Shown here: positions 5,875-31,500 of the stretch, piece after piece
How the letters are laid out: each line of letters starts with the position of its first letter
How positions within the stretch are numbered: the first letter of the stretch is position 1
Origin: Eledone cirrhosa
Lineage: Eukaryota
Reading direction: 5' to 3'
Assembly: GCA_964016885.1 (NCBI GenBank)
Contig: OZ024741.1
Span: 74,090,001-74,154,000, forward strand
DNA length: 64,000 bases
Position numbers and translations under genes: made by a program
Notes under the pieces: generated by a model
What the model saw: only the letters and a program-made list of their open reading frames with translations
Told to the model about the DNA's origin: nothing
The model's database searches: none

Positions 5875-6830
5875 GTAGTGCCGATGCCCGTGATTAGCCT
5901 CGCCATCACCCGTGGCAATGTTGCGAGCGTGTTGGCTTGGCTCAAAGTGTGTAGTTAACTCCTATGGTATGAGTTTGGGCCGATTGTGTCACTTGATAGT
6001 GAATCCCCCCCCCCCCCCCCCCTCCCATTTTTTTGGTTCCTTTATCATTAAGTATCTATCAACGTTGTGAAAACAGGTTATGCTAGAAATGACAGCGAAA
6101 TTGATGGTCGTTTCCGTTTTTGTTTCCCTTTTTTGAGTATTATATTTGATATATTTTTGTGTATTATATTTGTGAGGTTCCCAGCAATAATTAATTGTAT
6201 TTTTTTAATAAAAGTGAAACTTGTAAAAAGTCTCAGTTTGAGTAATTAAGCTGTGAAAATATTGCAGCTTTTGTATAACTGCTTCTGAATTAGACAAAAG
6301 AATAAATACTAACAGAAGTAGATTTGGCACCTCTCTCTCTAACACATGGCAGCGTTACCGCGGGTGATAGTGAGGCTCAGGTGCTGGAACAACCAAGAAC
6401 CCTCATTCTCAACGGACCAGCTCCTCTAAACGTTTCGAACGCCACTTTCACGACTGACAGCGTTGTAGTGCCACGCTATTAGCTGTCAGTCGTGAAAGCA
6501 GGCGAAGGTGACGTCATTCGTCATCGTTTATTTCCGTATTACTACCACGCGTAAGTGGAGTTTTCACACGTTTTTTATTTTTTTTATTATTAAAGCATAT
6601 CGATGTAAGTGGAGTTACTTAAATGAAAATATAGGTGGCCTGTTATGAAATCCATCTATCCTCAATATAACTTTGTTTTATTGCATATCTTTCTTTTCTT
6701 ACAAATATTATTGTTATATTTCTTCAAGACTAATTACTGTTTTTATATTCTAGATATTGAATAAAAGCTTCGAATTGGAGCTTTAGTTTTGCAATATTAG
6801 AACGCACAACAATTTTATTCAATATGATAT

Positions 6831-7690
6831 TTGTTACAACTGTTTCGTTCTGAGACTAGACGTGTTGTGGTATTCGTTTCCACCCTTACTCTACCTTCAA
6901 AGCTTGCTACATTCTCAATATCAATTGCTCAATTAAAAATTCCACATCCAACATTCCCAAATGACCCCACATCCGAGCAATGGCGATGGTGGCGGAAGTG
7001 TTTTGTGGATTCCCTACTCATAAACGGCATAGTAGAGGACAGCCATAAATTGACCTACCTTCGTTCACAAGCTGGGGCCGACCTATTTAGTTTACTCGAA
7101 TCTGCAGAAAACTTCAACGAAGCACTAATCACCCTGGATACTCAATTCTTAGCCCCCAGTCGTATACTCTATGCCAGACATCAACTCCTAACATGCCGCC
7201 AAAAGCAAGAAGAAACCGTCCGAGAGTTTATTAAAAGACTCAACCTTTTAGTGGAAAAATGTAACTGTAAAGCCATCACAGCTAAAGACCACAGAGATAT
7301 GTTGATCCTGGATTCACTAGTAGCAGGAGTCCAATCAGACGCTATACGAGCACGTCTCCTAGAGCTGGACGATACTCAAGCAAACCTAAAAGACTGCATA
7401 GCAATGGCAAATGCAATAGAACTATCCAGTGATTTTACTAAATCATTCAACCTAGACGTCTCTCTGAATTCATCAACACTGTCAACTACATCCTCTCAAG
7501 AACCTACCGTAGCAGCTACAAAATCAAAACAACCTCTTCTGAAATACTTGCAAAATGCTAATTCCCAAAGTGAATTTAAATGCTTTTTTTTGTGGACTTT
7601 CTAGGCATTCTAGAAATAAATGCCCAGCTAGAAAAGACATATGCTATTCTTGTGGGAAGATCGGCCACTGACAATCAGTCTGTAAATCTG
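6831..7690 (+). pseudogene. gag with zinc knuckles, frameshifted
   Basis: 257-aa ORF resembling gypsy gag (RQKQEETVREFIKRL..CNC..RD.LV.G). An extra T in the run at 7584-7591 shifts frame before CFFCGLSRHSRNKCPARKDICYSCGKIGH*. Confidence 0.8.
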
Positions 7691-7779
7691 ACTGCCAAAG
7701 CAGTAAGCAAGCAGCCTCACTTATATGTTCATTAAATACCGGCAAACAGTTTAAAGCTATTCTCTGCCCGATAACTATA

Positions 7780-9136
7780 AAAGACACCACACTAAAGGCC
7801 TTAATCGATCCTGGTTGCACAGATTCGTTTATACGTCATAGCATAGCAACTGAATTAAACTTGAGCGTAAAACAAGAAAAACGGGCAATCACACTAGCCG
7901 ACAATAAAATATCTCGCTGGCGTTTAGAACAATCAGAGCATCAATTTGACATTGACTACAAACCCGGCTACCTCAACACCCAAGCCGATTGTCTTTCAAG
8001 AATCGCTGCAGCTATATCGCCACCCTGTGATTTAAAAGTACTCCACGACCAACTAGCACACCCAGGAGTAACTAGATTTTACGATTATATCCGACGCCAT
8101 AACCTGCCCTTTTCCGTAGACGAAATCCGCGACGTCATCAAAAACTGCGTATCATGTTTGGAGTGCAAGCCAAAATTCTTCAAGCCTCCATCTGCTAAAC
8201 TCATTAAGTCAACAAGGCCGTTCGAACGTCTGTCAATCGATATCGTTGGACCAAAACCAAAATCTTCAAAAGCAGGAAACATACTTATTGACTGCAGTAG
8301 ACGAATTCAGCAGATTCCCTTTTGCTTTCGGTATGCGTGACATCACCTCAAACACTGTCATTAACTGTCTCAAACAAATCTTCTCAATATTCGGAGCTCC
8401 CTCATTCATACACTCCGATCGAGGAACTCAGTTTCTCTCAAAAGAATTCGATCATTTCTGCTTGTCCAATGGTATATCCCACACGCGCACTTCGCCGTAC
8501 CATCCACAAGGAAATGGCCAAAACGAGCGCTACAACGGAGTCCTCTGGAAAGGAATTCAATGCATAATTAACTCGCGCAAACTTAAAGAAACTAAGTGGG
8601 AAGATATCATACCAGAAGTTCTTGCCTCGCAACGATCACTTCTCTGTACAGCGACTAATGAGACACCCCATAACCGCATATTTAGATTCGATCGAAAGGG
8701 TTCCTTAGGATTTTCCCTACCAGATTGGCTTAGAGTTGGAAACGACGCCTATATTAGAAACTTTATTCGTTCAAAGAACGACCCATTAGTGAATAAAGTT
8801 ATTAACGAACAGATGGTGAATGCTAATTTCGCGGTTGTCAGATATCAAAATGGAAGATCTAGTACAGTCTCAACAGCAGACCTCTCCCCTGGCCCAATTA
8901 ATTGTCAAAATAATGACAATCAATCCATCCAAGAAAACAGTTCGATTAGCAGTCCTGCTGATATGCCGAGACCACTTAACATCGACCACAGTAACGATCT
9001 ACTCTTAGATGAAACCGTGATTGATTTAAATCCCGTGGCAAATAGCACTAGCATCCTACCGCAAGTTCCTGTTGACCCCGTGAGACGAAGCAATCGTATA
9101 CGCGTAGCCCCCAAGCGCTATATTGAAGAACAATAA
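7780..9136 (+). pseudogene. pol remnant: protease fused to RNase H tail and integrase (frameshift near 8280)
   Basis: ALIDPGCTDSFI protease; RWRLE..FDIDYKPG..N..ADCLSR RNase H end; H..LAHPG..C..C zinc finger; SIDIVGP / VDEFSRF / HSDRGTQF / GQNERYN integrase core. Confidence 0.85.
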
Positions 9137-10276
9137 AATCGGCGAAGAATGTTATGAAGTTCATCTATCCTCAATATAACTTTGTTTTATTGCATATCTT
9201 TCTTTTCTTACAAATATTATTGTTATATTTCTTCAAGACTAATTACTGTTTTTATATTCTAGATATTGAATAAAAGCTTGGAATTGGAGCTTTAGTTTTG
9301 CAATATTAGAACGCACAACATGGCCCTTAAAAGGGCCAAATTAGAAAACAAATTTAAGTTAATTAGAAAACAAGTCATGGTTAGCAAATAAATTGGATTT
9401 AATCATTTATATTTTCATAGTCATGGTTATCAAATAAATTGGATTTAATCATTTATATTTTCATAGTCATGGTTATCAATGTAGAAAACAAGTCATTTTC
9501 ACCAATAGTGGAGTTACTTCTGACAGCTAATACCATGAACTATATTTTCATAGTCATGGTTATCAATGTAGAAAACAAGTCATTTTCACCAACAGTGGAG
9601 TTAACTTAAATGAAAATATAGGTGGCCCTTAAAAGGGCCAAATTGTTAATGGAATTAACCATCGCGATCTTTCCATCGCTACCGCTACTACAGCAGATAC
9701 CATCAAACTCCATGGGGACTGTCTCTTGTCTCTATGTGGACTGTATCCATGCTTTTGAATAAGGTTGGTGAAAAAAATTTGTTTTCTAAACATTTCTTCA
9801 TAAAGGGTTGGTGAAAAATATTTGATAACCATAAATTTGTTAACCATAAATTTGTAATTTAAAAAAACGCGTGATATTTTCATTTAAGTAACTCCACTTA
9901 CATCTATATGCTTTAATAAAAAACAAAACAAAAAAAAAACGCGTGAAAAAAAAAAAATTTCATTTAAGTAACTCCACTTACGCGTGGTAGTAATACGGAA
10001 ATAAACGATGTTTTGCTTTCATCGGCTGCTTTCGACTGACAGCTAATAGCGTTGTAGTGCCAATAGCGTTGTAGTGCCAAAAATAGTTTATCGATAATTC
10101 CCGGTATTTCAAATTTTTATTACTTAGGTATATAATTTTTGTTATTAACGCGTTCCATTATAGTTTTATGTAAGTTAATGTAAATAAATAATGAAACAAT
10201 GGAATGTAGTATATGTATCATTTAACTATTTCTATTTAGACCACAGAAATTGTTGGTTAAGTTAACTCCAGCAAAA

Positions 10277-10317
10277 ATGGCAGAAAAGGAAAAGATTAAT
10301 GTCGTCATTGACTACTG
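10277..10317 (+). CDS. MIEN1: MIEN1-like coding exon 1 (MAEKEKINVVIDY + TG of split codon)
   Basis: AAAAATGG start context; donor TG|gtaatt at 10318; beta-strand V-V-I-D-Y precedes the redox motif. Confidence 0.8.
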
Positions 10318-13300
10318 GTAATTATAAATAAATATTTTTCTTAAAAAAACAAAACAAAACAAAACAATTTTTCTGGCTAACTGTTAGCTAGATCATTTCT
10401 TTTATTTCAATATCTTTGCTTCGCTAAACACACTTACATTTGATTTACATGTTTATTTACATTTTGCCTATAAAAAGTTTTTGCGAACTAAGAAACAACT
10501 AGTTTTAACAAAAATTTACGTTTGCATTTGAATATCGGCAGATTTATTTCAAGACGAGTTGTTACCGTAGACTATTAACGTAATTGTAATACTAAAATGC
10601 AGCCCCATCACCAAGCTTTGGAATATTCTGAGTGGATACTCTAATTTTCAAGGGAAATCTTTGATCAGCTTGTTCGATAAATTTTTTCGTTTGTTATTTT
10701 GTAAAATTTACATTAGTTAACCTCTAAAAACCCAAACTGGGAGTACCATAAAAAAGTGCAGAAATGAGACAATACCCATTTTCACAAGAGAAGACATCTC
10801 TCACCCATCCCAAAGTAGGTGGGAGAACTCCCCCGTTGGACGATCTCCCCCGTTGGACGAGGAGAGTTGACAGATCTGTGAGAAGAAAAGTGATTGAAGT
10901 CTAGATATCAAGGAACATATTTCAATAGGTTTTTTTTTATAAGCTCTACTTTCTAAATCTGAAATTTCACAATTGAAAAGTAGGGGGAAGTGACAGTCAT
11001 CTAGTGGCCACTGAACTGACGAGGGGCCCACTGGGTTGTTGTTTAGTCTCAGGTCAGTCATGAGCAGATAGACTATGATTAAAGGAATTCAATCGATGAG
11101 CATCTCATCTTTTCCCTAGCATAGTGTTGCCATGGACTACATTATGTCAAACAGATCGTAATGAAACCACACCTTATGATGTAAAAAAAAAAGTGACACT
11201 ATTTGCATAAGGTGGTGCTCATTAGTAGACAACACACACACACACTTATATATATATATATATGATGCGAAGTTATTGTTTGTTTTTGAAGAACTATAAT
11301 GAACATGACAAATACAATAATTGTTTCTACTTTTGGCATAAAGCCAGCAATTATCCCAGTGCATTACTGGTGTGTTATTTTATCGACCCTGTAAGGACGA
11401 ACGACAAATACAATGATTTGGGTTAGATATAGAACTTTATACTTCACTTCAGTTAAAAAGGAAAAAGAATAGGTGTTTATTATGCTACGTTAGATTACAA
11501 AGTGAAAGTTGTTTCAAGATGTACACACCAGCATAGGGAGCAGTAAGCTCACAGTGAAGGGGCAGATGACTCTGTGTGGTTGAAGTGCCGTTGGAAGAAT
11601 TGCTGTTAGGCCCTTGTAGACAGGGCTGAAGTTTTTTCTTTGCTAAGTGCTATATCTCACCACTTGCTTGAGCAGGCTGAAGTGATACTTCTCTCTCGAG
11701 GAACCCGAGTCAAACTGACACAAAGAAAACTTATCTCCTTCTTCCTCCAGCTAACTAACCACTTAAGACACCAACTGACGCCAACTCAGATAAAGAGAAA
11801 TAGCAGCTAGATGTCATTTGGGGGTTGGTGTGTGCAAAGAGATTTCGCTACATTATATATCATCATCATCACCGTTATACCCGATTTGTTCATTTGAGTA
11901 GTAGTAGTGATGATGTGTGATGAATGAGTAACTTGTTGGTCGAGTAATAGAAGGTGAGTAAGTGAAGTTGGTCTCAGTGAGTCAAGTGAAGCTTTGCCAT
12001 ATTTAAGGAAACAAATAGTTGTACTTGCTTGTGATGTGAAGTGACATTACTATGGGGAAGATGGTTTTACCATATGACATAGATAAGAATTAAATGAACA
12101 AGACTGCTAATTTTAATGTTTTTATTTGTAACATGATTTACTTTGAAATTATGTGCAGCGATGAATAATAGAAAAAAAATGTACATAAAATGCAGTATGT
12201 TATGTGTTCAAATGTAATATTTACTAACCTGTGTTGATAAAACTCTCAGCTAGTGCCGGTCCCAACAAGGTTAGCTAGAGAGAGTGTGCGACTGTGTATG
12301 TCGTTATATTGCAAGGCTGAAGGAACAAGCTATCTCTCTCAGAGTTGGGAAGCAAACTGAATCTGGGGGTCGAAAATCTCCTGTAACAATTATCTTCTTT
12401 TCAGACACCCTGATACCATGAGCCTATTAGAAGAGAGTGATATCTAAATTTGTGGCTCGGAGGTCGTAGGTCAGTCTTAAGGTGGTCATTTGTGGTAGAC
12501 TAAGAAAACCATCGTGGGAAAATGTGCCGAAGTTTCACTACATTAGTTCCTCACCCAGCTCGATGTGGGAGCAGCAATCAATAATAGAGGAGGTAGTGAA
12601 ATGCGAGAATATGATATGAAAATTGTGGAATTGAGATCTATGTTGGTTTTAGTTATAAACGGGCTTTTTTTGAAACTATATATATATAGTAATAATAATA
12701 AATTTGAAGACTAAAATCCAAAGAGGGCTCGATAAGGATAAATATATATCAAATATATAAGAACCGTAGAGAAAATATTTATTAAAATAACAGATTAAAG
12801 TTTAAACAAAGAATCGCTGCTTTCACCCTTAACGGGATCTTCTGAAGATCCCGTTAAGTAACCATTCCTAAAAAACAAATAGAAAAATAAAAGACAGGAA
12901 ATGAAAATATCCCTACATATATTAATCTTCAATACATTTGGATCCTCAGAAACATCAAAATGTATAAAACCTTATCAAATTTAGGAGAGGGATGTCTCCT
13001 ATGTTGGAAATGTGTTGATATTATGGTGTCATACTTTTATCTGATAAGAATATGTATTTGTCCGTATTTTTGTTTCACAAACACAATTCTTCTAAATATA
13101 TTCTATCCGGCTGTATTTGCTTTACTGCTGTATGAAATATCAGCAACTATGCTTGTTTTAGGGAGACCAAGTGCAGACTCGATGAGGTACTGCTTTGTTT
13201 GATTAGCTTTGGTCATTGGTATTTTGATGGAATCTGAATTCAAAAGTGCAAGTAGTTAGAATGGAGACTGCAAGGTGTCTTGTCTGATACTCTAACAATT

Positions 13301-16300
13301 CTTCCAATCCATCACTCTGGGCTGGTGCGTTATTTATCAACCCTAAAGGATGAAAGGCAAAGTGGTCTTCAGCAGGAATTGAACTCAGAGTGCAGAGAGT
13401 CAGAATAAATACTGTAAGGCAATTTTTATACTCTAATAAATTTGCCAATTTACTGACTATATTAATTGAATGATATATTCCAAAAGGAAAGGATTGAATC
13501 ATCAGATAAAAAACCCCAAAGAAACTGTTTCCACCAGTCTTCCCATTGCTGATACTATCTGTTAGAAGGAGATTTGAACACAGAGCCAGATCAAATACTC
13601 ATCCAACTGTAACAATTACACTGATCCTAGACAAGTTCTTTAATTATTGATCCCAAAAAGATGAAAGGCAAAGTTGATATCAGTCAGATTTAAAATAAGA
13701 GTGCTGGAACAAATACCAAGGTATTTAATCTGATGTTCTAATGACTTTGTCAATTCATTATCTCTATTGTGGCATTATATGAAAGATATTTTATCTAATA
13801 CTATGTTATATTAATTGTTATTTCCCTAATTTTGCTAATATGATATCTCAGTTTATCCTTAACTATCTTCTCTTGCTATTTTTCTCATTGATTTTGATTT
13901 ATAGAAGTGCATGAGGTGGATGGAATAGGATGGATTCACTTCGTTCAGCCATCCAAAAAGATATTCCTGAAGCCCAAGTAACAGTTGTTGTTAGTAAAAG
14001 ACGAGGTAAGATATATTTTATTACATATGCATCATATTAGTATTGTTTTATTTTTTTACTGGTTTCAGGCATTAGCTGCAAATATGCTGGGGCACTGCCT
14101 TGATGAGAATAAATTAATTTATCAAGTCTGGTACTTATCTTATTGAACTGTTTTTGTAGAACTGCTAAGTTATGGGACATAAAATAAACACACATACAGA
14201 CACAAACATATGCAAACATTGTATATCCTTCTCCTTCTTCTTCTTCCTCCTCCTGAGTGGGTCATGGGGGCAGAGTCCACAAACAATCCTTTCAGTGGAT
14301 CCTGTCAGAAGCAACCGTCTTGCTCGGAGTTTACCCCTGGATCTCCTGCCGGTTGGTTTTGCCCGTAAAATCTGTCCAGCGATTCTTTCCTGAGATATTC
14401 TAACCATATGCCCATAATATTGGAGCTGTGATCTCTCAATTTGGAGAAGTAGCAGGTCTACCTGGAGTGACTCTCTGATCTCCGAGTTACACACTTTATC
14501 ATCATCATCATCATCACTGTTTTACGTCCGTTCTTCCACGCTAGCATGGGTTAGACGGGTTGTCCTGTTGTGGGCAGTGTCTGGTCGGCTGACCTTGTCT
14601 TGCTCATACAGGAACTGATTCTGGCTTGATTTCTACAGCTGGATGCCCTTCCTAACACCAACCTTTATTTACAGTGAGTGCTGGGTGCTTTTTTTCCGTG
14701 GCGCCTACACGTCCACTTTACAGTGAGTGCTGGGTGCTTTTTTTCCGTGGTGCCTACACGTCCACTTTACAGTGTGGGCTGGGTGCTTTTTTTGCCATGG
14801 CACCTCCACGACCACTTTGCAGTGGGAGGGTGTGGGAGCATATTGTCTATATGCTTCAGCTTTGGCTTGTACCCGTGGGAGGTCGGGTACTCTGTATTAC
14901 CGCGTGATGCCAGAGGTCACGGTCGTGTGTCATCGCCTTTGAGAGGTGTAATTGGGTAAAGTCGGCTTTTATCACCTCATCCCAGGTCTTCTTGGGTCTT
15001 CTCACTCCGCGGTTTCTATTGACTTCTAGTGCTCTGCACCTTTTTATGCAGCTGTCATCCTTCATACGCATCACATGTCCATACCAACGCAACCACCTCT
15101 CCTGCACACAGCATTTGATTCCTCTTATGCTCAGTCTCTCTCTCAATTCATTTATGCTTTGCCGTTCACGTATATTACTATTACACATCCATCGGAGCAT
15201 GCAGGCTTTGTTTCTTTCTAATCTACGTAAGACCCTTCAGAGGAATCCCATTTTGGCCGCTTGTATTCGCAATCATATTCTTTAGGTTATTACCCAAGAT
15301 TCATGATCATAGGTAAGGGTTGGCACAAATACTGAATTGAAGATAGCAAGTTATATATACATCTGATTTATATAATTATTTTGAATTTTTCTCTCTTTTT
15401 CATAATAGTAATTTGTTAACAACAGTTTATTAAATTCTTTCTGACATTCCCTTAATTCTTAACCAGATTGTAATATTTCATGTTTTGATTAACATAATTA
15501 AATTCTTTATAAATTAACTATACATAGACTGGTTAATAATATACTAGCACTTTAGCTAGTAATGGTTTTAAATAAAAATTAAAATATTTAACGTTTTATT
15601 TTTTTGTTTATTACTTTATAATAATAATTTTGATAGCTCTAAATGTTTGTTTTATAATTTTCTCTGATTTTCCTGTAATTTTTAATATTCCATGTTTTTT
15701 TTAAAAATGAATATAATGAAGTTATACTTTCAAAGCACTAACTAGGTTTAACTAATTTTTAACATCATATATAAATATTTCTGTATATTTATATTTAGTT
15801 TATTATATTTGGAAATATTATATGTTAACTCATGATTTTATCTTTTTTCTTTTTTACTTCCTCTCATGTTGATATTAAATTCTGTAGTCCTTTAAAATGC
15901 AATGTATTATATATGTTAATGCTATATTAATAATGGTGTGTTGTTTATTACATATCATATGATTGTTGTTATAATGATGTGTCAATATAAAAGCCTCACT
16001 CCCTAGAATTGAGGATTGTTTTCAGTTTCTCCAATGACGATAAAATGAACAAAAATAATCATTAATCCTTGACTCAAAGATCAGATTATAATATATAAAA
16101 ATATTAATTATATATATTATTAATGTAGCTTGAACAAGGATTTTTTCTTTTCTTCTCTTTTATTTAATTTTGCAGAAACACACATATCAGGAATAAAATG
16201 ATTTAAATTTCACCTTTCCTAGTTGTTGCATTAAAATCCTGATACATCTATGACTACTGCTACACTATTAGAAGTCACCCCATTCTTCCTACTCATTACT

Positions 16301-19300
16301 CTTTCAAATCCCACTACGCTTGCCTTTCATCCATAACATCACTTATATCCCACTCCAGAGCAGAAAAGGCTCTTAGTTGGGACAATAACAATCAACATTT
16401 CTAGTGTGTGTCATGAAAATGCACCCAGGACTGTAAGGTGGATGCCAAAAAACAAGATAGAAAAACAAGAAAAATAATGACTGCATTTAGAATACACCAT
16501 CCAAAATAAGATGTAGACAGGTTATACCTACCACGAACATTAGGAGAAAGGGGCTTAATACAACTAGAAAACTGTTATAAAATAACTACTGTAGGACTAC
16601 GAAAATATCTAATGAAGAACAAAAAGAAGTCAATAGAAATATCTATAAAACAAAAAAATTGTATTCAATCTTCAAGGAGGCCAATAAATTTAAAGCAGAA
16701 ACTGGATTAACAGATAGCTGTGAGGAAAATAAAAACACAAGAAACAACAGAAATAGTTGAAAACTTAAAATCTAAACTGAAAACGGACCTCTAGAATGCC
16801 ATGTTAAAACAATAGTAATAGAAACCATTATATGGCCAATACCTGAAAAAGCTGAATAGAGAGGAAGTAGACAAGCAAAATACACAAAACTGGCTATGAA
16901 ACACTGGATTAAATATCAAGATGGAAGGATTTTTAATTGCAGCACCAGACCAAAGCTTCGCCTCTAGAAACTACAAGAAGTACATAATGAAGCAGAACAT
17001 AATAATAATTGCAGAATATGTGGCGGTGAGGAAGAAACAATTAACCACATTATCTCTGGCTGCCCAGTCAAAGAAATACATCTACAGACATGATAGAGTA
17101 GGGACCTACATACACTGGAAATTATGCCAACATTATGAAATACCAGCAGACAAAAGATGGTTCAGACACATACTAGAAAAGCTATCAGAGATTGACAAAG
17201 CAACCATTCTCTGGGATATGCCAATACACACAGACCATGAGATCAAAGTCAACCAACCTAATATTATAGTCAAAGACTGCAAAAAAATGTTTTCTAATTG
17301 GTGTATCAATCCACACAAATAACAATATATTTTAGCAGAAATATATTTAGAAGTTGTAATGTTGCCACGAGGAACCACCAGTTGGTAGAAAGATATGATA
17401 GGAATATCGACAACGACTTTAGCTTGTTTTTACATTATTTATTAACAAAGGTTGAGCTGGCATGCCAAGAGAAATAAAACAAACGAATTAAGATTTCAGA
17501 AAGACACGGGCTACTGGCTGTTAGGTGTTGCCAGGCCGTGGTTAAATTGTTGTGTTACATATTGGCTAGTGATTTCACGGCGAAAGAAAAGTTGTTTACC
17601 TTAGCACGGTTCGAGCTGGAAGAGAGAGACTCCTCAAATCTTTGCGGGTAATTTCTCTCTCAGGACGCGTAGGGATACATCCTCTTCTACTGGCGCTGAT
17701 TGGCTGAGCTGAGCCAAATCACGCACAGAGAATGTATGTGAGCCTGCGGAATGTAGGTCACTACAATACCCCCCTTCTAGACGGTAGTCGATACAGATTA
17801 TTGAATCAGCAAGAACAAATGCTGAAAGAGCACATCAGTGAAAAAATAATTGAGCAGAAGGATGCATGCAAGAAAAAAAATGAGGCGCTACGGGCCGTGT
17901 TGAGCCGCTGTGTCAAATGACTAGCTGTTTTGTAGTTTATACGTGACCACCAAAGGTCTAACAGAAAACGGATAAAGTCTGACATGGGCGAAGTTGCTGT
18001 TCTTGCTTTAAATGTTAATGGTAAGTGTTGTACCAGTAGCTGTGGATGAAGCTATTATGGTAGTTTACCAGTGCTGGCAAGAAGATGATGGGTAGGCGAG
18101 AAAATGTTGGCCTCCCAGATGTATTGCTGAATGTGCTAGGGGGCCAGGACAAAATGGCTGGTTGCTTTGATAAGAAAATAAGCAAGCTGAATCTGTAGGT
18201 GGGTTGCAGTCCCACAATTCGGGCGAATCCACAGAAGTGGTGGAAATGCTGACAAGTCCAGTTCTATTTGTTGTTTTCCCGGTGAGTTGGGTAAGATAAC
18301 AAGATAGAGGTTGTTATGGACGATGAATGTGCAACGAGATGCGAAACTGTTTGAGTTCAGCTGCAATTAGCATTCTCGTGTTGCGGTGCAGGTGAATTAA
18401 GCTGCAAGTGTCGACAGCATGTTTTGGTACCTCCAGAAGGTGAAAAGGGATCTCGCAGAATATTACGACGCTCGAAGATCACACACCATAGACAACAACA
18501 TGTTGGTGTGTGTATATATGCAGGCATGTAATACAGCAAAGAAAATGTGTGTGTGCGGTCACATATACAATGATAGAGAGAAATGAATTTTCATATAACA
18601 CAGTTTAAAAAAAAAAAAAAAATGTCCAAAATAAATGCCTGAAAAAAAAAAGGAAGAAAGAAAGAATTGTTTCCTTTCTTTAAACAAAAAGTACGCTTCT
18701 TTTTTCTTTGGGATCGCTCTTACTAGGGAGCTAGTAGAGTTGTTGTTGTTAAAGCAAAGTCACAATGAATCTTCTGTAGAGTAGAAGTCACCAACATGGC
18801 AGCCACGTCTGACCCCATAATGGTGAGAAAACTACTGTCTTAATTTCTCGAGTCCCTGTGGTAACGAGACAGAAGGTATGGTGGTTGCGTCGGCAAAGTT
18901 ACAAGCCGTTCCCTGGTGTTGGTTAATAGTTAGCCATGTGTTGCTTGTTTGCATTGCAGGAAGCCGTATGGAAAGAAAAATGTCTCCAGGTTATAATTTT
19001 TAAAATACAGCCAATTTTTTTTTCCCTCCAAGATGTTGTCGTTGGCGAGTTTGCAAAAGTTAAACCACGTGTTGTTCTTTTTTAAAAAAAAAACTACTTC
19101 CATGTTTTATTTTTTTCTCTTTTTAACGGTAGAGACGATAGAACAGGTGAAAGCGTGGAAGTCAACAATATGATGTGTGGTGGTTGCGTCGGTAAGGTTA
19201 TGAAGCTGCTATCTCACCATTCCCTGTTGTTGGTTAGTGGCTAAACAATGTTGTCGCTGCTGCTGTCGTTGATTGTAGACAGGACTTGTCGGTAGCCATT

Positions 19301-20488
19301 TTGAAATTTCCTCGTGGCGAAAAGTTTTTGAAATACTGCTAATTTTCTTACAATTTTAAAAGGGATATTTTGTATTTTCATCAGTTGCATTGAACAAAAA
19401 GGCTGCGTAAAATTCTTACATCAGTCACCAGAGAAGTGTTTAGAAGTTGTAATGTTGCCACGAGGAACCACCAGTTGGTAGAAAGATATGATAGGAATAT
19501 CGACAACGACTTTAGCTTGTTTTTACATTATTTATTAATAAAGGTTGAGCTGGCATGCCAAGAGAAATAAAACAAACGAATTAAAATTTCAGAAAGACAC
19601 GGGCTACTGGCTGTTAGGTGTTGCCAGGCCGTGGTTAAATTGTTGTGTTACATATTGGCTAGTGATTTCACGGCGAAAGAAAAGTTGTTTACCTTAGCAC
19701 GGTCGAGCTGGAAGAGAGAGACTCCGCAAATCTTTGCGGGTAATTTCTCTCTCAGGACGCGTAGGGATACATCCTCTTCTACTGGCGCTGATTGGCTGAG
19801 CTGAGCCAAATCACGCACAGAGAATGTATGTGAGCCCGCGGAATGTAGGTTACTACAATATCTACAAAGGAAATGGAGAAACTATCTAAATATAAAAATC
19901 TAGAGATAGAAATAACCTGAATGTGGATGATGCATACAGAAACAATATCTATGATAATAGGTGCTCTGGAAATGATACAAAAATACAGATACATAACCAA
20001 AACCCCATGACTTACAAATATACACAGTATACAAAAAATAGTACTACTAGGCACCACACACATATTTCAAAGAGTATTCTCAATACAATAGAAACATCAC
20101 CACCAAAAACCATACTGCACATACCCAAGGTGTACAGAGCTGTGCTCGGTAATGCAGTAATAATGTGCAAAATAATGATAATAATAATAATGGATTCTCC
20201 TGTCAATTTTGACAAATGAGAAGTTATGTTGGTATCACAACATCCAGTCCGAAGTAAATGAGGTCGTGTAGGTGTCACGACAAAAAAACACAGTCCATGC
20301 TGTAATGTGGCCATGTAGGTAACACGGTAAAAACCTCCCACTCCACACTGTAAATGTGGTTGGTGTTAGGAAGGGCATCCAGCCGTAGAAAACCCGCCAG
20401 ACAGTCCTATACGAGCAAGACAACCAATCTTGCCTCAAGTGGGAAAATTCCCGTCCAAACCCATGCAAGCGTGGAAGATGGACGTTAA

Positions 20489-20519
<31 letters not shown>

Positions 20520-23500
20520 GGGTCCAACAGCTAGGTTTTTCTTTTTTGTCTTAGTTGTGATGTTTATGTCTATAATGATACTTTAATTCAGCAGACTAGA
20601 TGACAGATTGGATATAACAGAGGATTATTATACAAAGTGGTTGGAATGTTAGATTGAGTTTGTGTCTTTACTCTCAATGTTTTAAGATGATCCAGGCGGT
20701 ATATTTCATAGTTTTTTTAAGGCTTTATAGAAAGTTAACCGTCATTCATCATGACTCAATGCAGTTTTTCAAATGTTTCTGAAGGAATATTTGTCGCTTT
20801 CAGGTCAACTTTGAACTTGTCCTTCTACCTCAGCCATGGTTTTACGTTTTTCCTTCCACTATATAGCTGACTATTCAATTGGTTTCTATAGTGTCTATAT
20901 CTACTAAATTTCACTCACAAGTAACTGTATATGTAAACATGTTTAATTATATATCTCATTTTTAGGTGCTTTTGAAGTTATTGTCAATGGAAAGTTGATT
21001 TTCTCTCGTCTTCAGACTGGTGATTACCCCAATCATAACAAGGTCTGTATATTACATTTAATTTTACCTTTTATTATTTTTTGTTTTAAATGTGTATTCT
21101 CTGTATTTGTTATATAAACCAACAGTATCCTCATCATGATCAAGTTCCCCCAATTGCTGCAGTCAGACATTAGAGTGCCTCTCTAGACGTTTTTACAGTC
21201 AGCAGTCACAACTAGTTTCAATACTTCATCATGAATAGAAAGGTCATGGTGTTGTGATTTGTCCAGTCCTTGATGTCAAACCACGATTTTCTTTGCCTGC
21301 CTTTCCTCTAACTTCACCCTCCCTCAACTGTGCTCTGAAGGATGGTTTTAGACAGAGTTGTGACTAGATACATGATTGTACCAGGCAAGCTTTTGTTTTT
21401 TTTACCATCATAGAAAGTGGTTCCTGTCTATCAGCATATTTGTTGATTTGCTGCCTGACAAACTTGTTTCTCTTGTGTTCTGTGTACAGGATGTATAGCA
21501 GTCTTCTGAAGTACTTGTGTTCAAATGCTGGGATTCTTTTCTTTCATGTTGGCTGTAAGAGCCCATCTTTCACATTTATACAGAAGGATCAAATTCACCA
21601 GGATGCCTTTCTTAATAATTTGAAACTCATTGGAAAATTTATCGAGTTGCTTTTCCATATAATGTTCAGGAGAAGAGGCCAGGCCAAGTTTTGTCATAAT
21701 CTCTTTTAGTGGTCCTTGGTCAAAGTGGATCCTAAATACTTGAAGGTGTCCACCTCTTCAAGTTTTCTTCCATTCAGCATGATGTTGGTTGCTGTATTAT
21801 GGTTATGATTATTAACCATAATCTTGTTCTTTAAATTGGTTATGATCAAACAGAAACAAAGAATGAACTCTTCAGTCTGGTAGAGCACATGTCAACATTT
21901 CTAGTGCTAGTGCCAGAATAAAGTGCACCCAGTGCACTCTGTAAAGTGGTGGTGCATATACTGTGATAAAATATATCCAGTACACTATGTGAAGTAGTTA
22001 GAAGAAGGAAGGGCATCTAGCTGTAGTGACCATATGAAATATATAAGCAAGATTTTAGCATGTTTTTTACAATTGGATGCCCTTCCTAATACCAATCACT
22101 TTACAGGGTATACTATGTGAATTTTATCATGGTACCAGCACCAGAGATGTTGTCATGTCCTTGACACAATTGAAGAGTCCTCTCAACCTTTTGTTTGGCA
22201 TAGTTTCTATGGCTGGGTGCCATTACTAACACTAATCATTAAACCAAGTTTACTGGCTGCATTTTATCATAACACCAGCACTAGTGAGATTGTCAAGTCC
22301 TTTACCCAACTGAAAAATCTTCTCAACCTTTTATTAGGCAAGGTTCTTATTGCTAGTTACCCTTCCTAACACCAACCACTTAATAGAGCGTACTGGGTTT
22401 ATAAAATTTGCATATTTCAGTAAATCAAACTTACATGTGACTACTAGATATAGAAACATTTTCTTGTCATTGTAAAAACAGTTGAATTGTTAAGAACAAA
22501 TAAATTATGTTCCCAACTGTGAACAAGATGACCATTTAGAAAACTGAAGGTGTGTTATCACTTACTTTTGATTAAAAAAAATTCTTCCTGGTTTAAAATG
22601 AAAAATATCCAAATTTACAGATCTACAAAGCCCCTAATTAAAAATCTATATATTTTCTACTTATTTGTTATTTCAAAAGAATATATAAAGGAAATAGATA
22701 TTTCTATTTCTCTTGTTCAATAATATTAATGGTTATTTTCTTAAAGATACTGAAGATTTTATTCATGTAATTCAAAGGAAAAGATTACTCTGGATTACTC
22801 CATTAGAAAATTTAGTATCAACACTTAAAGCTGATATAGGAGTGGCTGATGCAGTGGGTATCACTGGCTGTTCTCCACAGCAATGCTTTTGCCATGTTTT
22901 AAACATTGGCAACACTAGGAAAATTATAGAATTCCCGTCAATAAAGATTCTTTTCGATGACATTCAATTTGGCCAGGAATGTTTTCACAGCATTCCTTGC
23001 TTTAAGCAAAGTGATCTTCTTTCCCTGCAAAGCCAAAATGATACTGTTGCATTTGGCGAAGATGTCGGTGGGGTAGGCTCTGTCTTGTCTCACATCGAGG
23101 GTTTTCTTGTACAGTTCTGTGTTGCGTCCTCGCAGAAACTCAATGATAGAATCGAAAAGTTCAAAGAAGTGAGTAAGGCACTTGCCCTTTGAAAGCCACC
23201 TCACTTCAGTATGAAGGAGCAACTTGACGAATTCTTCGTCATTATCTTGGCACAGTTGCTGGAAAATTCATTCATTGAGGGAATGCCGTTTTATAAAATT
23301 GATGACATCAATGGCCACCTGCAAGGACTTTCTCAGCAGCTCGGTGAGTTTCTTCGCAGCCAAATGACACAATGAAGAGCAAATACAGATAGATTTTCTC
23401 TCTTCAGAAGAGTGACGAAACCCTTATGTTGGCCGACCATTGCTCTTGCGTCGTCTGTAGCACATGATACAATGTGTGTTGTATGTGGTCCTAGTTGTAT

Positions 23501-25061
23501 GTATTACCTCCTTATGTGTTGTATGTAGTCCTAGATGTATGTATTACCTGATTATGTGTTGTATGTGGTCCTAGATGTTTGTATTACCTGATTATGTGTT
23601 GCACACCTGCTCACAGCTGCGGTCAGATCATAGTTATGCTGTCTGCATGTTCATTCAAATGCATTCACACTGGCTATCTCAAAGACATACAAAAATGGCT
23701 TATAAAACTTACCAAAGTAAAGAACCTTCCAGTGCACTCCAAAGCTTCAAACGCCCTGGATTTCCGAAACGCCCCTGGGGGTGCATATGCCCCCGTTGAG
23801 AACCTTTGTTCTAGATGATATGTAGCTGTAATATACTGTCTATACACGAGTGTAGAGTGTGCCCCTCCCACTCCCCTTCATTATGTAGTTCATAATGACT
23901 CAGGCGGCTGTAACATAATAATTGTATATATTTTAACTAAACATATTGCAAGTCAGTCATTATGGTACTGAGCACCACCTAACTACTATTATCTCTAATA
24001 ATATTTCATATCATGTGATGTTTTTCATTTTTTTTTATATTGTGTTTATTTGTATGCATTCTATTTGAAATAAAATTTTCCCCCTCAAAAGACCTTAGAT
24101 ATCCTCATCATTGCACCCTAGTAGCTACTCTCCTACTACCCTTTGTTCACCCCTTACTCCCTCACTACCCCATCTCCCACACCACTGCATCTCTTCTCAC
24201 CATACACTAACCAGCTACACTTATGTCTTACCTCATATCTATCTCTCCATCATGCCCCACCTCCACCATATTGACCATATCCCTCACACCACTACATCTC
24301 CATAGACTAATCAGCCACCCTACCCATCCTCACAAACACCTATAACTTAATATTTATATCCCACCCCTATTGTCCTCGTCCCAGAGCTGAGAGGGCTCTA
24401 GAGTTGGGTCTATAACCTCTCTAGAGATGGTGCCATGAAAATACACTCGGTACACTCTGTATGAGTGGCTGGCGACAGGAAGGACACCTCGCTGTAGAAA
24501 CCATGCCTAAAAGGGTTGGAAGGACCCTTCAGCTGTATCAAAGACACAACAAACTCTCCAGTCTGGGTGATCTACACAATAAACACACCCAGTACATGCT
24601 GTAGAAAGCTTGCCAATTAAATGCCATAGTATTTATTCCAGCTCACTATGCTTTGAGTTCAAATCCTGCTGAGATCAACTTTGCTTTTCATTCTCTCAGG
24701 GTTGATAAACAAAGTACTAGGCCAGAGGGAGTGGTGAACTGGGGTAATTGTTAATGAATCAATATTGGATCTGGCTCTGTGCATTCTAAGTTCAAATTCC
24801 ACTGCCTTCTGTCAGCAGTTGTGACTTGCAGATAATATCAACAATGGAAAGCTCAATGGAAACATTGTTTATTTGGTTTGATCTGCAAATTCACTGCTTT
24901 CCTTTCCATTTTTTTTAAATTATAAATTTCAATAGTAATATTTTCTTTTTTCTTTTAACTTTTAATAGGTTATAAACATGTTACATGATGTCCAGAAAGG
25001 AAAATCAATTTCTCAAATTAAACAATCTTCTTCAAAATCGGGGCGATGCTTAATTCTATAA
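10277..25061 (+). CDS. MIEN1: Rdx-family selenoprotein, MIEN1/SELENOW2-like; spliced CDS join(10277-10317,13905-14005,20966-21042,24969-25061), 103 aa with two predicted Sec (UxxU) and C-terminal CaaX
   Basis: Manual splice with GT-AG introns and compatible phases (2,1,0) gives MAEKEKINVVIDY-U-SA-U-GGWNRMDSLRSAIQKDIPEAQVTVVVSKRRGAFEVIVNGKLIFSRLQTGDYPNHNKVINMLHDVQKGKSISQIKQSSSKSGRCLIL*. It has the Rdx hallmarks V.I.Y(C/U)xxUG and GxFEVxVNGxLIFS+L, and a CaaX end like MIEN1 (CVIL). A SECIS lies downstream. Confidence 0.88.
13905..14005 (+). CDS. MIEN1: MIEN1-like coding exon 2 (redox motif, in-frame TGA at 13912-13914)
   Basis: Pyrimidine tract then atag| acceptor; donor GAG|gtaaga at 14006; translates (U)SAUGGWNRMDSLRSAIQKDIPEAQVTVVVSKRR. 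Confidence 0.85.
14230..14495 (-). mobile_element. RTE-like LINE 3' tail fragment
   Basis: IERSQLQYYGHMVR..PTGRRSRG C-terminal motif and (GAA)n-like tail. Confidence 0.6.
14498..14870 (-). mobile_element. SINE family A copy with an internal tandem duplication
   Basis: Same body; CAGTGAGTGCTGGGTGCTTTTTTTCCGTGG block repeated. Confidence 0.75.
14880..15230 (-). mobile_element. RTE-type LINE 3' fragment (intron 2)
   Basis: MLRWMCNSNIRERQS..LRWYGHVMRM..KTWDEVI, same family as 850-1480. Confidence 0.78.
16480..20090 (+). mobile_element. Degenerate R4/Dong- or NeSL-like (RLE) LINE C-terminal region, split by an LTR element
   Basis: EGFLIAA.DQ, Y.YRHD.V..IHWKLC, ILWDMPIHTD..I..NQPNIIV.D; after the insertion NISTKEMEKLSKYKNLEIEI. 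Confidence 0.72.
17347..19857 (-). mobile_element. Non-coding (non-autonomous) LTR retrotransposon with about 419-bp LTRs
   Basis: Direct repeats 17347-17765 and 19440-19857 (about 6 differences); ATAT TSD at 17343-46 and 19858-61; PPT (rc AGAAGGGGGGTAT) at 17766-17778; PBS-like TGGTGACTGATG (rc of 19419-19430); no gag/pol ORF inside. Confidence 0.85.
20235..20518 (+). mobile_element. SINE family A-related subfamily copy
   Basis: GGTTGGTGTTAGGAAGGGCATCCAGCC body and (GAT)n tail; related copies at 31980-32200 and 61305-61600 on the minus strand. Confidence 0.72.
20966..21042 (+). CDS. MIEN1: MIEN1-like coding exon 3 (GAFEVIVNGKLIFSRLQTGDYPNHNK)
   Basis: ctcatttttag| acceptor, AAG|gtctgt donor; encodes the Rdx-family GxFEV motif. 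Confidence 0.9.
21130..21800 (-). mobile_element. Degenerate RTE-like LINE fragment
   Basis: IMLNGRKLEEVDTFKYLGSTLTKD and downstream degraded RT C-terminus. Confidence 0.6.
22938..23810 (-). mobile_element. hAT (Charlie/Buster-like) transposase fragment with one terminal region
   Basis: LLHTEVRWLSKGKCL..FFELFDSI.EFL and upstream TDxARAMVG-like motif; hAT-like end GGGGGTGCATATGCCCCCGTTGAGAACCTTTG near 23778-23808. Confidence 0.75.
24969..25061 (+). CDS. MIEN1: MIEN1-like terminal coding exon ending in CaaX (CLIL*)
   Basis: Long T tract then tttaatag| acceptor; VINMLHDVQKGKSISQIKQSSSKSGRCLIL-TAA. Confidence 0.85.
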   Translation, partial: VINMLHDVQKGKSISQIKQSSSKSGRCLIL

Positions 25062-26490
25062 ATTTATTTTGTTTTCAAGAAACTGCTGCAATTATGTTAC
25101 ACCTTAAACTCTCTCAGATTAAATTTGCTTCTTCCTTTTTAAGTTATATATATATATATATATATATTAAAGGCCTTCACTATCGTACTTCTTTTCCAAA
25201 TCCTCATAGCATAGATAACCAAAGAGAAGCAGCTAGCAAAAAACTCTAGGTGTTAAGGGTTAAAACACTTGCATGAGAGGATTTTTTCTCAGATCTGCTG
25301 TCCAGTTCTCTCTAGAATTTCTTGCTACTTGCTTCTTTCTATCTAAGTTAATATAACATAATTCTTTTCTATTAGGTTTCTTTTTTAAATCCTCATGGCA
25401 GAATTACGTAAGCATATACTTTTTTTTCATTTTTTTGTATACCTTTTCTATTATCTCTTTCTCTTTTCTATCCCAGCTCACTTCACTTACCCACTTTCTA
25501 CCCTTCCTTTGCATCTCCCTCTCTCCTTACACACTTCTACTCTCTCCACTTAGCCAACTCTTGCCTAGTTTCTGCATCTCTGTATCATTTCCTCTTTATT
25601 ATCCCTGTTTATCTGTACTTACTTAACCCACCAACTTTCAGCACCTTTTTTCCCATTTCTCTCTTTGTTTGTCTTTCCCCTGTTTCCTTCTCTTTGCTCA
25701 CCCAATTTCTGTCTCTTCCTCTTTTCTCTCTTGCTCCCTGTTTTCTCCCCCTCACTTTCATTGACTTTCCATTCTCTCTTTATCTTTGACTTTCCATACT
25801 CCCTTTCTCTAGATATCCTACTTCTCTCTTTATCTTTGACTTTCCCTACTCCCTTTCTCTAGATATCCTTGTCTCTGCCTACTTCTCTCTTTATCTTTGA
25901 CTTTCCCTACTTTCTCTCTCATTCAATACACAATGTCTCCTTTACCCCCCTCTCTCTCTATATATATATATATATGTTTCTTCCTCATTCAATATATCCT
26001 CTCTCTTTGCTCACCCACTTACCATGATAATCCCACATCTATAATTTGCTCTCCATCTCTTTTCCCTCTCTACATCGGTAGATTCCAACTTAGGTACAAA
26101 AGTGTACACTAAAATATTTTGAAGATTTCTGAAAAAGGTTTTACAGGATTTGTCAGTAAAATTTGATAGTTCTTCAAACCATCTTTTATGAAATGGTAAA
26201 TAATTGTTTCTACTTTTGGCACAAGGCCAGCAATTATCTCAGTGTATTACTGAATGGTAAATAATAAGAGAAAAATGTGTACATGTATAGTCTGTCAAAT
26301 TTAAGGGTTCTTTATAAGTCTCCTAGTAATATTTGAGGTTCACATTATGATAAAAGTCTGAATAATTGTCACATAAAATTGATAGTGAAGGCTGAATTCT
26401 AATATTCTATTTCTTTCTCTATGTAACAATTGTTAAACAGAAAAAAATTATCTTTATTGTTTTGCTTTAAAACTTTTTACTTGGCTTTCT

Positions 26491-26571
26491 CACTGGTTAT
26501 CTTTTACTATGAAAACACTGGTCTAAACATGTATCGATCAGGGTTGGATAAATTTTGTGGAATAACCAGTG
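26491..26571 (+). promoter_or_regulatory. Eukaryotic SECIS element in MIEN1-like 3'UTR
   Basis: Helix I CACTGGTTAT (26491-26500) pairs with ATAACCAGTG (26562-26571); core ATGAA (26509-13) / GGAT (26546-49); helix II AACACTGGTC / GATCAGGGTT (9 of 10 paired); apical loop TAAACATGTATC with AAA. Confidence 0.85.
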
Positions 26572-26603
26572 AAAAACTTGACTGAAAATTGTTTAAAAAT
26601 GAC

Positions 26604-28599: not shown

Positions 28600-31500
28600 T
28601 TAGTTGCGATATGAGCAGGCTTCTGCAGGATGAATAAGCAGCCTCAGATCAACAGTAAACTACTAGGGGAGATGGTGCAATGAATGATGCTGTTAACTCC
28701 CAAGAAAACTCTTGCAACCCAGTGATGTAGCTACAACAAGGTGAGTAAAGGCTGCCTCTAAAAAAGTCTGGTCTCCATGAGTCTGATAAAAGTACTAAAT
28801 TGGGTACTGGCGGAATGAGACCACCAAAACACTGTAATATGGCTGGAAACAGCCATTCTTAACATACCATCCCCCATGCAGGATAACAAGGGATGTATTC
28901 AAGCCTTAGGTAGAGGGGCCTGTTCAAAAGATATATTGTAGTCTGCACCCAATGCTGCAAGAACTGGCAAAGCACCTGCAACCTGACCAGGGAGGTGTGG
29001 GATGGAAGCACAAATGTTACATATCTTGAGACCCATGAGAGGGTCCAAAAGGGAGCAAACTGTGACAATTAGTAACGAATCTGACAACTTTTACAGGCAA
29101 GGCACAGGAATTAGTGGCAGTGGCCACTTCTACAGACTTGATATAGTCAGTGCTTCCTCAACAAAGTTCTGTGGCTCTGGTACTGTAGATTGGATGGAGG
29201 ATGGAAACTATACTATTCAGGTGTGGTGCCAGAAAATACTGCCCAGGCAGGAGTCGGGGATACTCATAACCCCACCCATCACCTATAAGAATATGTTATG
29301 AACTGGATCCCATTGGGAGGGAGGATTTGCTTTTTGAAGCTTATGTTGAAAGGTCTCAGTGAAGTGGTGCCAAAAAAGAGAGCCCAAATACAGATCATAC
29401 CTTGATGAAGTCACTGCAGTGTTAGATGTAGTTAAAACTGGATCATATATTCTAATAGAGACATCAATGCACATGGCACTGACCACCTGACATGGAAAGA
29501 GTGATTGGAAGGAACAGAAATCCTGATCTAAATATGAATAGAGAGGCTTTATTACACTTCTGTTCTAGTAATGGGCTCTCTATTACGAACACCTTCTTCC
29601 AGCAGAGCACAGAGACATATATTAATATAGATGGTATGTGTTGCATGTTTGTGTTAAGAGAGGGGGTGAGTTGTCAACTGATCACCATATAGTTATCTGC
29701 GATGTGGGACTACCTAAAGCCAAGAGAGCCAAAAAAACTTGCATGTCCAGGTGACCGACAGGATGAAGTGGAAAGCACTGGCAGAAAAGGAAGTCTGGAA
29801 CAGCTTTTCAGATACTATTGCATTGAAATTAGAACTTTCTGAGAACATTGAAACTGAGTGGAGACTTCAACTCAGCAGTTTTTGCTTCAGTAAACTGGAG
29901 CAATGTGAAATAGAGTGTCTTGTGTTGTTTCTTTGAGCAAGACACTTTATTTCACATTGCTCCAGTTTACTCAGCTGTAGAAATGAGATGATAGGGACTG
30001 GGGTCCCTATCATTCCACTGCAAAGTGGTTGTGGAGGTACCACGACAAAAAAGCACCCAGCCCACACTGTAAAGTGGTCGTGTAGGCGCCACGGAAAAAA
30101 AGCACCCAGCACTCACTGTAAATGAGGTTGGTGTTAGGAAGGGCATCCAGCTGTAGAAATCAAGCCAGAATCAGTTCCCGTCCCACCCTTGCAAGCAGGG
30201 AAAAGCGGACATAAAATGATGATGGTGATGATGATAAATGTTGCAGGCTAAAGTAGCTTGGTGTGGCATGAGGACCCCTTGGTCAATCAAATGGACAAAG
30301 ATCCCATCTGAGCGAAGAAAGAGGCTTATAAATAAGTCTTCCTACTTGTACTTGCGGTACAAGCAGGCATGAAAAGTTGCAGCCGAGTCTGTAAAAGCAT
30401 CTGAAATTAAGACATGGGAGGACTTTGAGGTTAAGCTGGAATCTGTCTTCAGATCGGCAAATAAAGTATTTTGGCTGACCATCCATTGAGTTCGTAATAA
30501 GAAGTCCTTCTCCACGTCTGCTATGGGGGTTCTCCTCTCTTCAGAGAGGTGAGAAAATACTTTTCTGATCTTCTAAACCCAGTCACAACAGCTTCTGATG
30601 TATAGAAGGTACAGCTTCTGATGTACACGAGGTGCATCTGGGAGAGATGACTAACCTCTCATAGGCTGAAGTCACAAGAGCAGTTAAAGAGCTGAAATGT
30701 GGTAAGGCTGCTGGGGAGAATTTGGCCTGAGATGTTAAAAGCCTTAAATAGAGAAGGTATTTTTTATCTGGTTCATGTGCACTGGGTGGCCTGAATCTCT
30801 GGAAAGGCACCTAAGTAATGGCAAACGGGAGTTTTAATCTCAATTTCCAAAAAAAGAGCTGAGAGATTGCTCCAGTTATAGAGAGGTCTCCTTGTTAAGC
30901 CTCCCCAGAAAAGTGACTGGCAAAAAGATGTAGGGATATTGTCGGGTTCATGGTAGCTGTTGAACAGTGTTGTTTCCATCCCTGATGCATCACAGCTAAC
31001 CAAATATTCACACTGCACGGTGTATTGCCAAGCAGTGTGTAAACTTCAAAAAGGCATGTGACAGCATTCCTTGGGACCTGTTGTGGAAGGTTTTGCAGGA
31101 GTATGGGATTGATGGACAGCTTCTTGTTGCCTTGATGTCTCTATATAAATGTTCTATTATTTGTGTTTGGATAAATGGTGCTAAGTCAAAACCATTCAAT
31201 GTGGGTGTTGGATTCAGCCAAGGATGCGTACTGTCACCTCTTCTGTTCATAATCTTTATGGACAGGATTGATATGTGAAGTCAGTTTGGGTATTGAGACT
31301 GGCAGATGGAAGATCAATTGGCTAGAATTTGCGGATAACATGAAATTACTTAACTTCAAAAGGTGATCTCTGACATGAACTCAATAGGTTTGCTGCTGAG
31401 TGCTGCAAATACTGAAACACTCGTACTCTCAAGGAAGCCTGTGTAGTGCACTCTGCATGTGAGTGGAGTTCCACTGAAGCAGGTGGAGAAGTTCAAGTAT

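Follow-up and report, generated by a model that had tools for sequence, protein, structure and literature searches.

The window, a stretch of 64,000 nucleotides of Eledone cirrhosa (contig OZ024741.1, positions 74,090,001 to 74,154,000), harbors an Rdx selenoprotein gene of the SELENOW2 type, termed here gene A. All its features lie on the + strand. Four coding exons form a spliced frame of 103 codons with UGA at codons 14 and 17, and the mRNA reads U-S-A-U at the redox site. The coding part of exon 1 (10277..10317) starts with the ATG and ends in TAC TG|gt, where TG are the first two bases of codon 14, the first UGA. Its donor has the same position in three paralogues, and its last 31 bases lie within a spliced contig of the sequencing run X4. 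Intron 1 (10318..13904; GT..AG, phase 2) divides the first UGA. Exon 2 (13905..14005), with 101 nt as in four of four paralogues, begins ag|A AGT GCA TGA GGT; base 13905 completes the first UGA, and the second occupies 13912-13914. Exon 3 (20966..21042, 77 nt) encodes the conserved Rdx core. The coding part of exon 4 (24969..25061) contains a CaaX box, CLIL, at 25047-25058 and the stop codon TAA. A tandem acceptor, TAG-AAG, is located at 13902..13907. Its proximal AG, at 13903 the first AG in 53 bases, yields U-S-A-U; the distal AG (acceptor 13908) would yield C-A-U in frame. The three paralogues do not have this tandem. The 3′ UTR spans 25062..26594, as far as the listed X4 contig pieces reach (24967-25135, 25175-25801, 25821-25906, 25988-26225 and 26223-26594, with no joint between pieces), and depth continues to about 27200 over repeats. 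An upstream non-coding exon was looked for and not located.

The type of run X4 is not on record. It covers the exons, leaves the intron bins empty and joins at GT..AG, and thus behaves as RNA. One contig of 407 nt (depth 644) contains the joint 10317>13905 and has no other letter over 13904-14007. It extends into exon 3, which is joined on both sides, and joins 21042>24969, so that all three introns of gene A are joined. The joint 10317>13905 is absent from three DNA-like runs. The distal joint, shifted by 3 nt and giving the C-A-U form, was not seen in X4 among the joints listed. The four runs belong to a single study, and the RNA support amounts to one contig from one run, perhaps of the same animal as the assembly. 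The original prediction had read Y-UGA-S-A-UGA-G across TAC TG|gt / ag|A AGT GCA TGA GGT and had proposed looking for reads across 10317/13905; the X4 joint bears this reading out. It had also stated that sole use of the distal acceptor at 13908, or a faulty base 13905, would speak against it. Both fell: X4 uses the proximal acceptor, and its spliced contig has A at 13905.

A type 1 SECIS element (26490..26572) is found 1448 bases after the stop codon, inside the 3′ region covered by X4 contig. It comprises helix I, a core AUGA at 26509, AAA at 26525 and GA at 26547. A SECIS downstream of the frame had been predicted, and its location lies beyond the range 10277..25061 given at that time. The folding z is -2.64, with 1 of 200 shuffles equally stable. 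The element is kept in four paralogues, where 79 of 80 cells are paired and both partners have changed in 2 pairs; 51 of 500 shuffles do as well, and covariation alone is not significant. Identity among the paralogues amounts to 81-86% in the SECIS versus 60-71% in exons 2 and 3. In a narrow rescan the Rfam model SECIS_1 gave 17.1 bits, under the gathering score of 35, and a wide Rfam scan of 24900-45000 had listed 150 of its 164 matches, none of them a SECIS. A SECIS-like hairpin at 28777 was rejected, having 6 nt from core to AA, a weak lower helix and no X4 cover.

The intact Rdx frame of 103 amino acids proposed for gene A is confirmed by the spliced frame and by two profiles. Exon 3 matches Pfam PF10262 (Rdx) with 23.4 bits (cut-off 22.6); exons 2 and 4, searched singly, have no Pfam match. 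Against a profile built from 18 homologues outside the cephalopods, the spliced protein reaches 82 bits and 200 shuffles stay at 2.8 or below; full-length proteins resembling paralogue D score 45-55 bits on PF10262. Place and spacing of the Rdx motif are kept, but the residues are UxxU, not CxxU or CxxC. The top PDB match is 2LJK (MIEN1/Rdx12/C17orf37) with an E value of 6e-11, versus 2.5e-3 for SELENOW 2NPB. Another PDB comparison (3.5e-6 versus 0.4) likewise places the protein nearer to MIEN1/SELENOW2 than to SELENOW1, and named homologue matches are MIEN1 or MIEN1-like. A C-terminal CaaX box is present as CLIL in A, CTIL in D and CIAL in B. The earlier label, MIEN1/SELENOW2-like, thus stands for the SELENOW2/MIEN1 group, given the 2LJK match and the CaaX box, and not for MIEN1 proper, the gnathostome duplicate of SELENOW2: the tree, in which deep forks are weak, does not join A with the fish-like rows. 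MIEN1 proper has been placed in jawed vertebrates and the invertebrate genes within SELENOW2 (PMC13134290), hence the name SELENOW2-type. Nor is gene A a SELENOL, a protein with a peroxiredoxin-like domain and UxxU: it matches Rdx only, and SELENOL is a separate locus.

The genome contains three further copies, B, C and D, which share the introns and the SECIS of gene A and were missed by the original prediction. All are CxxU (CDTU, CQGU and CNSU, respectively), the split codon and the UGA being separated by two codons. This common spacing identifies the proximal acceptor as ancestral. A and C are sisters in the DNA tree (bootstrap 100) and in the protein tree (91/84). Three D-like proteins likewise have Cys at the first motif position. 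Together with the sister position of A and C, this makes one Sec gain on the A branch the simplest history, and most likely the first Sec of gene A arose through a single substitution in the opening base of exon 2. An orthologue of gene A appeared neither in three protein searches nor in a representative search, where a blank is weak. The query with exon 3 confirmed 0 of 1 candidate, a D-like protein query 3 of 3, and a mixed alignment 4 of 26, all D-like. We infer that W in the D-like record P0150 stands for UGA; among 179 pattern matches to its DNA in metagenome contigs, none was confirmed. Octopus vulgaris CAI9736225 as query retrieved four matches in the Eledone genome, all known copies, with no fifth. 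The genome searches, the copy counts of which are lower bounds, revealed neither a retrocopy nor a second haplotype of A. Two other PF10262 matches concern different sequences: L027 looks like chance, and L026 is presumably the last exon of a SELENOT-like gene.

Elsewhere in the genome are two tRNA-Sec genes with the anticodon UCA (77.7 bits) and an exon of SELENOL that reads U-L-P-U. The SECIS of SELENOL was missed by a strict scan. The two-Sec Rdx protein of the original prediction is the best reading of gene A. A SECIS-bearing SELENOW2-type mRNA with UGA-Ser-Ala-UGA probably encodes a two-Sec thioredoxin-like protein, for which a diselenide and lipid anchoring via the CaaX box are predicted. 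In the proposed mechanism, the ancestral gene was of the CxxU kind, already had a functional SECIS and would have been duplicated. In copy A, the opening base of exon 2 would then have mutated so that TGY became TGA, and a second Sec would have replaced the N-terminal Cys; such a Cys-to-Sec conversion in a gene that already has a SECIS downstream has been set out for SELENOW (PMC7539508). The single SECIS may recode both UGAs, as one SECIS serves both Sec residues of SELENOL (PMC3316567). A diselenide is suggested by analogy with SELENOL and with the disulfide that CxxC forms in MIEN1. Oxidised A would then carry Se-Se instead of Se-S, at a lower potential. Anchored by its CaaX box (predicted prenylation), the protein may act at membranes as a stronger reductant or as a slowly reset redox switch.

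It is possible, though rather unlikely, that both UGAs are read as Sec and the change is a tolerated accident, near-neutral in a redundant paralogue, without selected chemistry and perhaps with a lower yield. Four copies provide the redundancy, their joint dN/dS of 0.74 is not different from 1 (p = 0.13), and the estimate of 2.9 for the A branch does not differ from 1 either (p = 0.30). Sister C has already lost its CaaX box owing to an early stop, and a SECIS allows recoding of any UGA that precedes it (PMC7539508). However, A is the most family-typical copy, with the highest score on the outside-homologue profile (82 bits, followed by D with 73, B with 64 and C with 50) and a short end branch in the protein tree (0.13 versus 0.93 for C). 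In addition, UxxU recurs in Rdx proteins of amphioxus, an alga, one metagenome contig and eight bacterial genomes; such recurrence suggests that a lineage can retain the motif. None of 61 metagenome matches to the UxxU pattern passed the homologue profile; one (L127), the sole one sent to Pfam, was confirmed there.

A more far-reaching form of the two-Sec reading is doubtful. It regards A as a membrane-anchored diselenide protein arising from a selected Cys-to-Sec change after duplication, with a splice-switched site (U-S-A-U versus C-A-U), and as an instance of a UxxU Rdx branch that recurs from bacteria to animals and is counted too low. The base making the new UGA also sits in the tandem acceptor, so that moving the splice site by 3 nt would replace U-S-A-U with C-A-U.

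A nonsense allele, a transcribed pseudogene in early decay on which ribosomes mostly stop at the first UGA, is very improbable. Two recoding events would be required within four codons, three introns lie downstream, and the dN/dS values leave purifying selection unproven; yet the 103-codon frame is intact, SECIS and CaaX box are kept, fully spliced RNA is present, and the same genome has a UxxU SELENOL exon. A proximal TAG is usually preferred over a distal AAG. It is equally hard to credit that the A at 13905 is an uncommon or private variant or that many transcripts use the distal AG, even with runs from a single study, contigs that drop rare variants, X4 joints seen only as listed and a frame preserved by the shift, since the X4 sample is labelled apart from the DNA runs and differs from the assembly at 26448 yet has A at 13905, no second allele is listed there, and C-A-U departs from the spacing of two residues that all paralogues share.

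Gene A, preferably read as a two-Sec gene, is real and rare. Its putative first Sec codon exists only after splicing and is invisible to genomic TGA scans. Natural diselenide proteins are few, and the three CxxU paralogues of the same genome make the effect of a second Se on redox potential, partners and reduction pathway testable against natural controls. Cys-to-Sec gains are rare, with none across 44 vertebrates (PMC3316567). The original prediction had considered UxxU the hallmark of SELENOL and CxxU or CxxC the normal motif of Rdx proteins. UxxU is not restricted to SELENOL, as two-Sec UxxU SELENOW has been published for amphioxus and Ostreococcus lucimarinus (PMC7539508, PMC3473315, PMC2375036). 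The UxxU Rdx class itself is known and the mollusc member is new; no report of a cephalopod UxxU SELENOW or MIEN1 was found in the literature searched, to which subscription papers mostly do not belong.

SELENOL and A share UxxU, two Sec two residues apart, and one SECIS (PMC2397514, PMC13134290, PMC3316567). SELENOL forms a peroxiredoxin-like family with a demonstrated diselenide, whereas A belongs to Rdx and its diselenide is predicted. SELENOW2 of fish, frog and invertebrates has the motif in the same place as A, but as CxxU, and amniote MIEN1 has CxxC. The CaaX box of MIEN1, CVIL, resembles CLIL of A, but A is basic with a net charge of +7 and MIEN1 strongly acidic with -19 (PMC3527542). 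The SELENOW of amphioxus and Ostreococcus lucimarinus is closest in kind, both being Rdx proteins with UxxU replacing CxxU, explained like A as a Cys-to-Sec gain upstream of a SECIS. Gene A may differ from these proteins in its SELENOW2 type with a CaaX box and in the UGA split by an intron, and it does differ in coming from a mollusc and in the three CxxU paralogues that accompany it in the genome.

Gene A (10277-25061), a SELENOW2-type Rdx gene of Eledone cirrhosa, has a real spliced UxxU motif and is probably a two-selenocysteine (Sec) member of the SELENOW family; UxxU SELENOW itself is already known. The bases originally predicted at both exon ends were confirmed. Exon 1 begins with ATG at 10277 and ends in TAC TG before the gt at 10318, and exon 2 follows tatag at 13905 with A AGT GCA TGA GGT. 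Exon 3 (20966-21042) and the last exon (24969-25061) were placed by a motif scan. The spliced frame comprises 103 codons, with UGA as codons 14 and 17 (U-S-A-U) and a C-terminal CLIL before the stop. Exon 2 is present in four public sequencing runs, none labelled as RNA in its record. Three of them behave like DNA, with even intron coverage; in the fourth, X4, which behaves as RNA, the intron bins are empty. In a 407-nt contig of X4 (depth 644), position 10317 is spliced directly to 13905; the contig agrees with the assembly at every letter of 13904-14007, continues into exon 3 and also joins 21042 to 24969. Thus, spliced RNA contains the first UGA, the proximal acceptor is used with A at 13905, and the assembly error at 13905 that the original prediction had considered is refuted. 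The X4 joints examined are those reported here, with 113 more existing, and contig assembly loses rare forms; a small share of transcripts may use the distal AG (13906-13907), yielding an in-frame C-A-U. Acceptor-like AG sites at 10229-10246, just 5' of the ATG and also present in the paralogues, point by sequence to a candidate non-coding exon upstream.

The SECIS expected downstream was located at 26490-26572. The hairpin has the AUGA/GA type core, 11 nt followed by AAA, an upper helix of 9 pairs and a lower helix of 11 pairs. Its fold is more stable than 199 of 200 shuffles, and the whole Rfam SECIS_1 model aligned with 17.1 bits, under the cut-off of 35. The stop codon and most of the interval up to 26594 lie within X4 contig pieces, which are interrupted at simple repeats. 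They contain no splice joint in this interval, which suggests a single continuous 3' UTR from stop to SECIS. Position 26448, in the 3' UTR shortly before the SECIS, is C in the spliced run and T in the assembly, representing either an allele or a different individual.

Exon 3 passed the Pfam Rdx cut-off. Profile matches to human C17orf37/MIEN1 (2LJK) were far stronger than those to mouse SELENOW, and named matches were MIEN1-like. According to the available text of PMC13134290, all invertebrate members of the group belong to SELENOW2, and MIEN1 proper is a gene of jawed vertebrates. Hence, SELENOW2-type is the correct name. SELENOW1 was not found among the matches listed in a Pfam search of the genome.

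Exon 3 and the SECIS region, searched against the same genome, each identified the same four loci, all on contig C2; the exon 2 search found three, and the fourth was added by alignment. These are A (~74.1 Mb, USAU), B (166730783-166745830, near 166.73 Mb, CDTU), C (160905872-160922060, near 160.91 Mb, CQGU) and D (near 205.09 Mb, CNSU). All four lie on the + strand of this one chromosome-size contig. They share an exon 2 of 101 nt, an exon 3 of 77 nt, the intron phases and a SECIS. Exon 1 ends in TG in every copy. The first base of exon 2 is T in B, C in C and D, and A solely in gene A; a tandem acceptor is likewise confined to gene A. In trees, A and C group as sisters. In the protein tree, an Octopus vulgaris protein falls in the same clade, which also includes a Thrips protein; together with octopus-type repeats, this fits an octopod genome. 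Three database proteins, 70-78% identical to D and apparently cephalopod, read C-N-S-W, the W presumably being UGA as translated by the gene caller. The simplest history is a single Cys-to-Sec change on the A branch. Identity among the copies amounts to 81-86% in the SECIS versus 60-71% in exons 2 and 3. In the SECIS alignment 79 of 80 cells are paired and two changes occur on both sides, which is not significant with four rows. Paralogue C has an intact SECIS, a long branch and an early stop in exon 4, yielding 86 aa without the CaaX box. Paralogue B carries an N-terminal extension of 47 residues and S-S-W in place of G-Y, the residues after Sec in most family members.

Two tRNA-Sec genes with equal scores are located 58 kb apart on opposite strands of contig C23 (15059770-15059855 and 15118228-15118313). 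A SELENOL-type exon (C2:194601752-194601820; RHFG-U-LP-U at 194601764) has both UGAs of its U-L-P-U within a single exon. About 1.1 kb upstream of A, three overlapping open frames of 258, 222 and 338 codons (6828-9133, +) resemble gag, protease and integrase regions, presumably from an LTR retrotransposon remnant. Many LINE-like fragments occur elsewhere in the window.

UxxU had been regarded as the hallmark of SELENOL. This view does not hold, as UxxU SELENOW is described for amphioxus and Ostreococcus lucimarinus in the accessible parts of PMC7539508, PMC3473315 and PMC2375036, the first explaining it by a Cys-to-Sec change upstream of the SECIS. A SELENOW2-type case may already be in print. 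No report of a cephalopod UxxU SELENOW/MIEN1-type protein was found in the literature searched, and the accessible parts of PMC2874816, PMC3828610 and the TOGA2 preprint hold nothing on UxxU. In a pattern scan of bacterial and archaeal genomes, 8 of 28 matches were Rdx proteins with Y-U-x-x-U, one confirmed by Pfam (contigs L041, L047, L049, L052, L053, L055 and L060 at 401-438; L059 at 185-222). Their hosts are labelled Bacillota, Desulfobulbaceae, Desulfocapsaceae, Planctomycetota, Chloroflexota and Verrucomicrobiales, and SelA is present in all five UxxU genomes tested. Since the pattern was narrow, further bacterial members are likely. The bacterial SELENOW-like family is given as CxxU with one Sec in the available text of two reviews (PMC9312934, PMC13188914) and the GOS paper (PMC2398784). 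One of 61 metagenome matches (L127, 363-668, - strand) was a eukaryote-like, SELENOW-like protein of 101 aa with U-G-G-U (Pfam 39.9 bits). Judged by these sequences, the UxxU motif is recurrent in Rdx proteins.

Eukaryotic SECIS elements recode in-frame UGAs upstream. A combines UGA 14, created by splicing, with UGA 17 and a SECIS. Decoding of both would yield a protein with two Sec, forming Se-Se when oxidised and located on membranes; this is probably what A makes. Evidence for selection is mixed, and a tolerated accident, with both UGAs decoded alike, is an unlikely alternative. For this alternative speak a dN/dS of 0.74 across the four copies, not different from 1 (p = 0.13), an A branch indistinguishable from 1, and pairwise values of 0.64-0.88. 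Against it, A reached 82 bits with a profile built from 18 homologues outside this genome, ahead of D (73), B (64) and C (50), has a short end branch and kept the CaaX box. Database protein and representative-genome searches yielded no orthologue of A. Coding exons of A and C are more diverged (69% identity) than their intron flanks (83%), which may hint at diversifying selection, the codon model not being significant. Termination at the first UGA is very improbable. Equally improbable is a rare allele at 13905 or mainly distal splicing. Coverage of exon 2 in the DNA-like runs is thin, so a second allele could escape.

Its setting makes the gene distinctive: an intron splits one Sec codon, the protein ends in a CaaX box, the tandem acceptor may act as a splice switch, and the three paralogues with CxxU provide the direction of change and controls. 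According to the accessible parts of the respective papers, one SECIS serves both Sec in SELENOL (PMC3316567), diselenides have very low potentials (PMC2397514), and MIEN1 is geranylgeranylated at CVIL (PMC3527542). MIEN1 closes a disulfide (-225 mV) at the same motif position (PMC3527542) where A would carry Se-Se.
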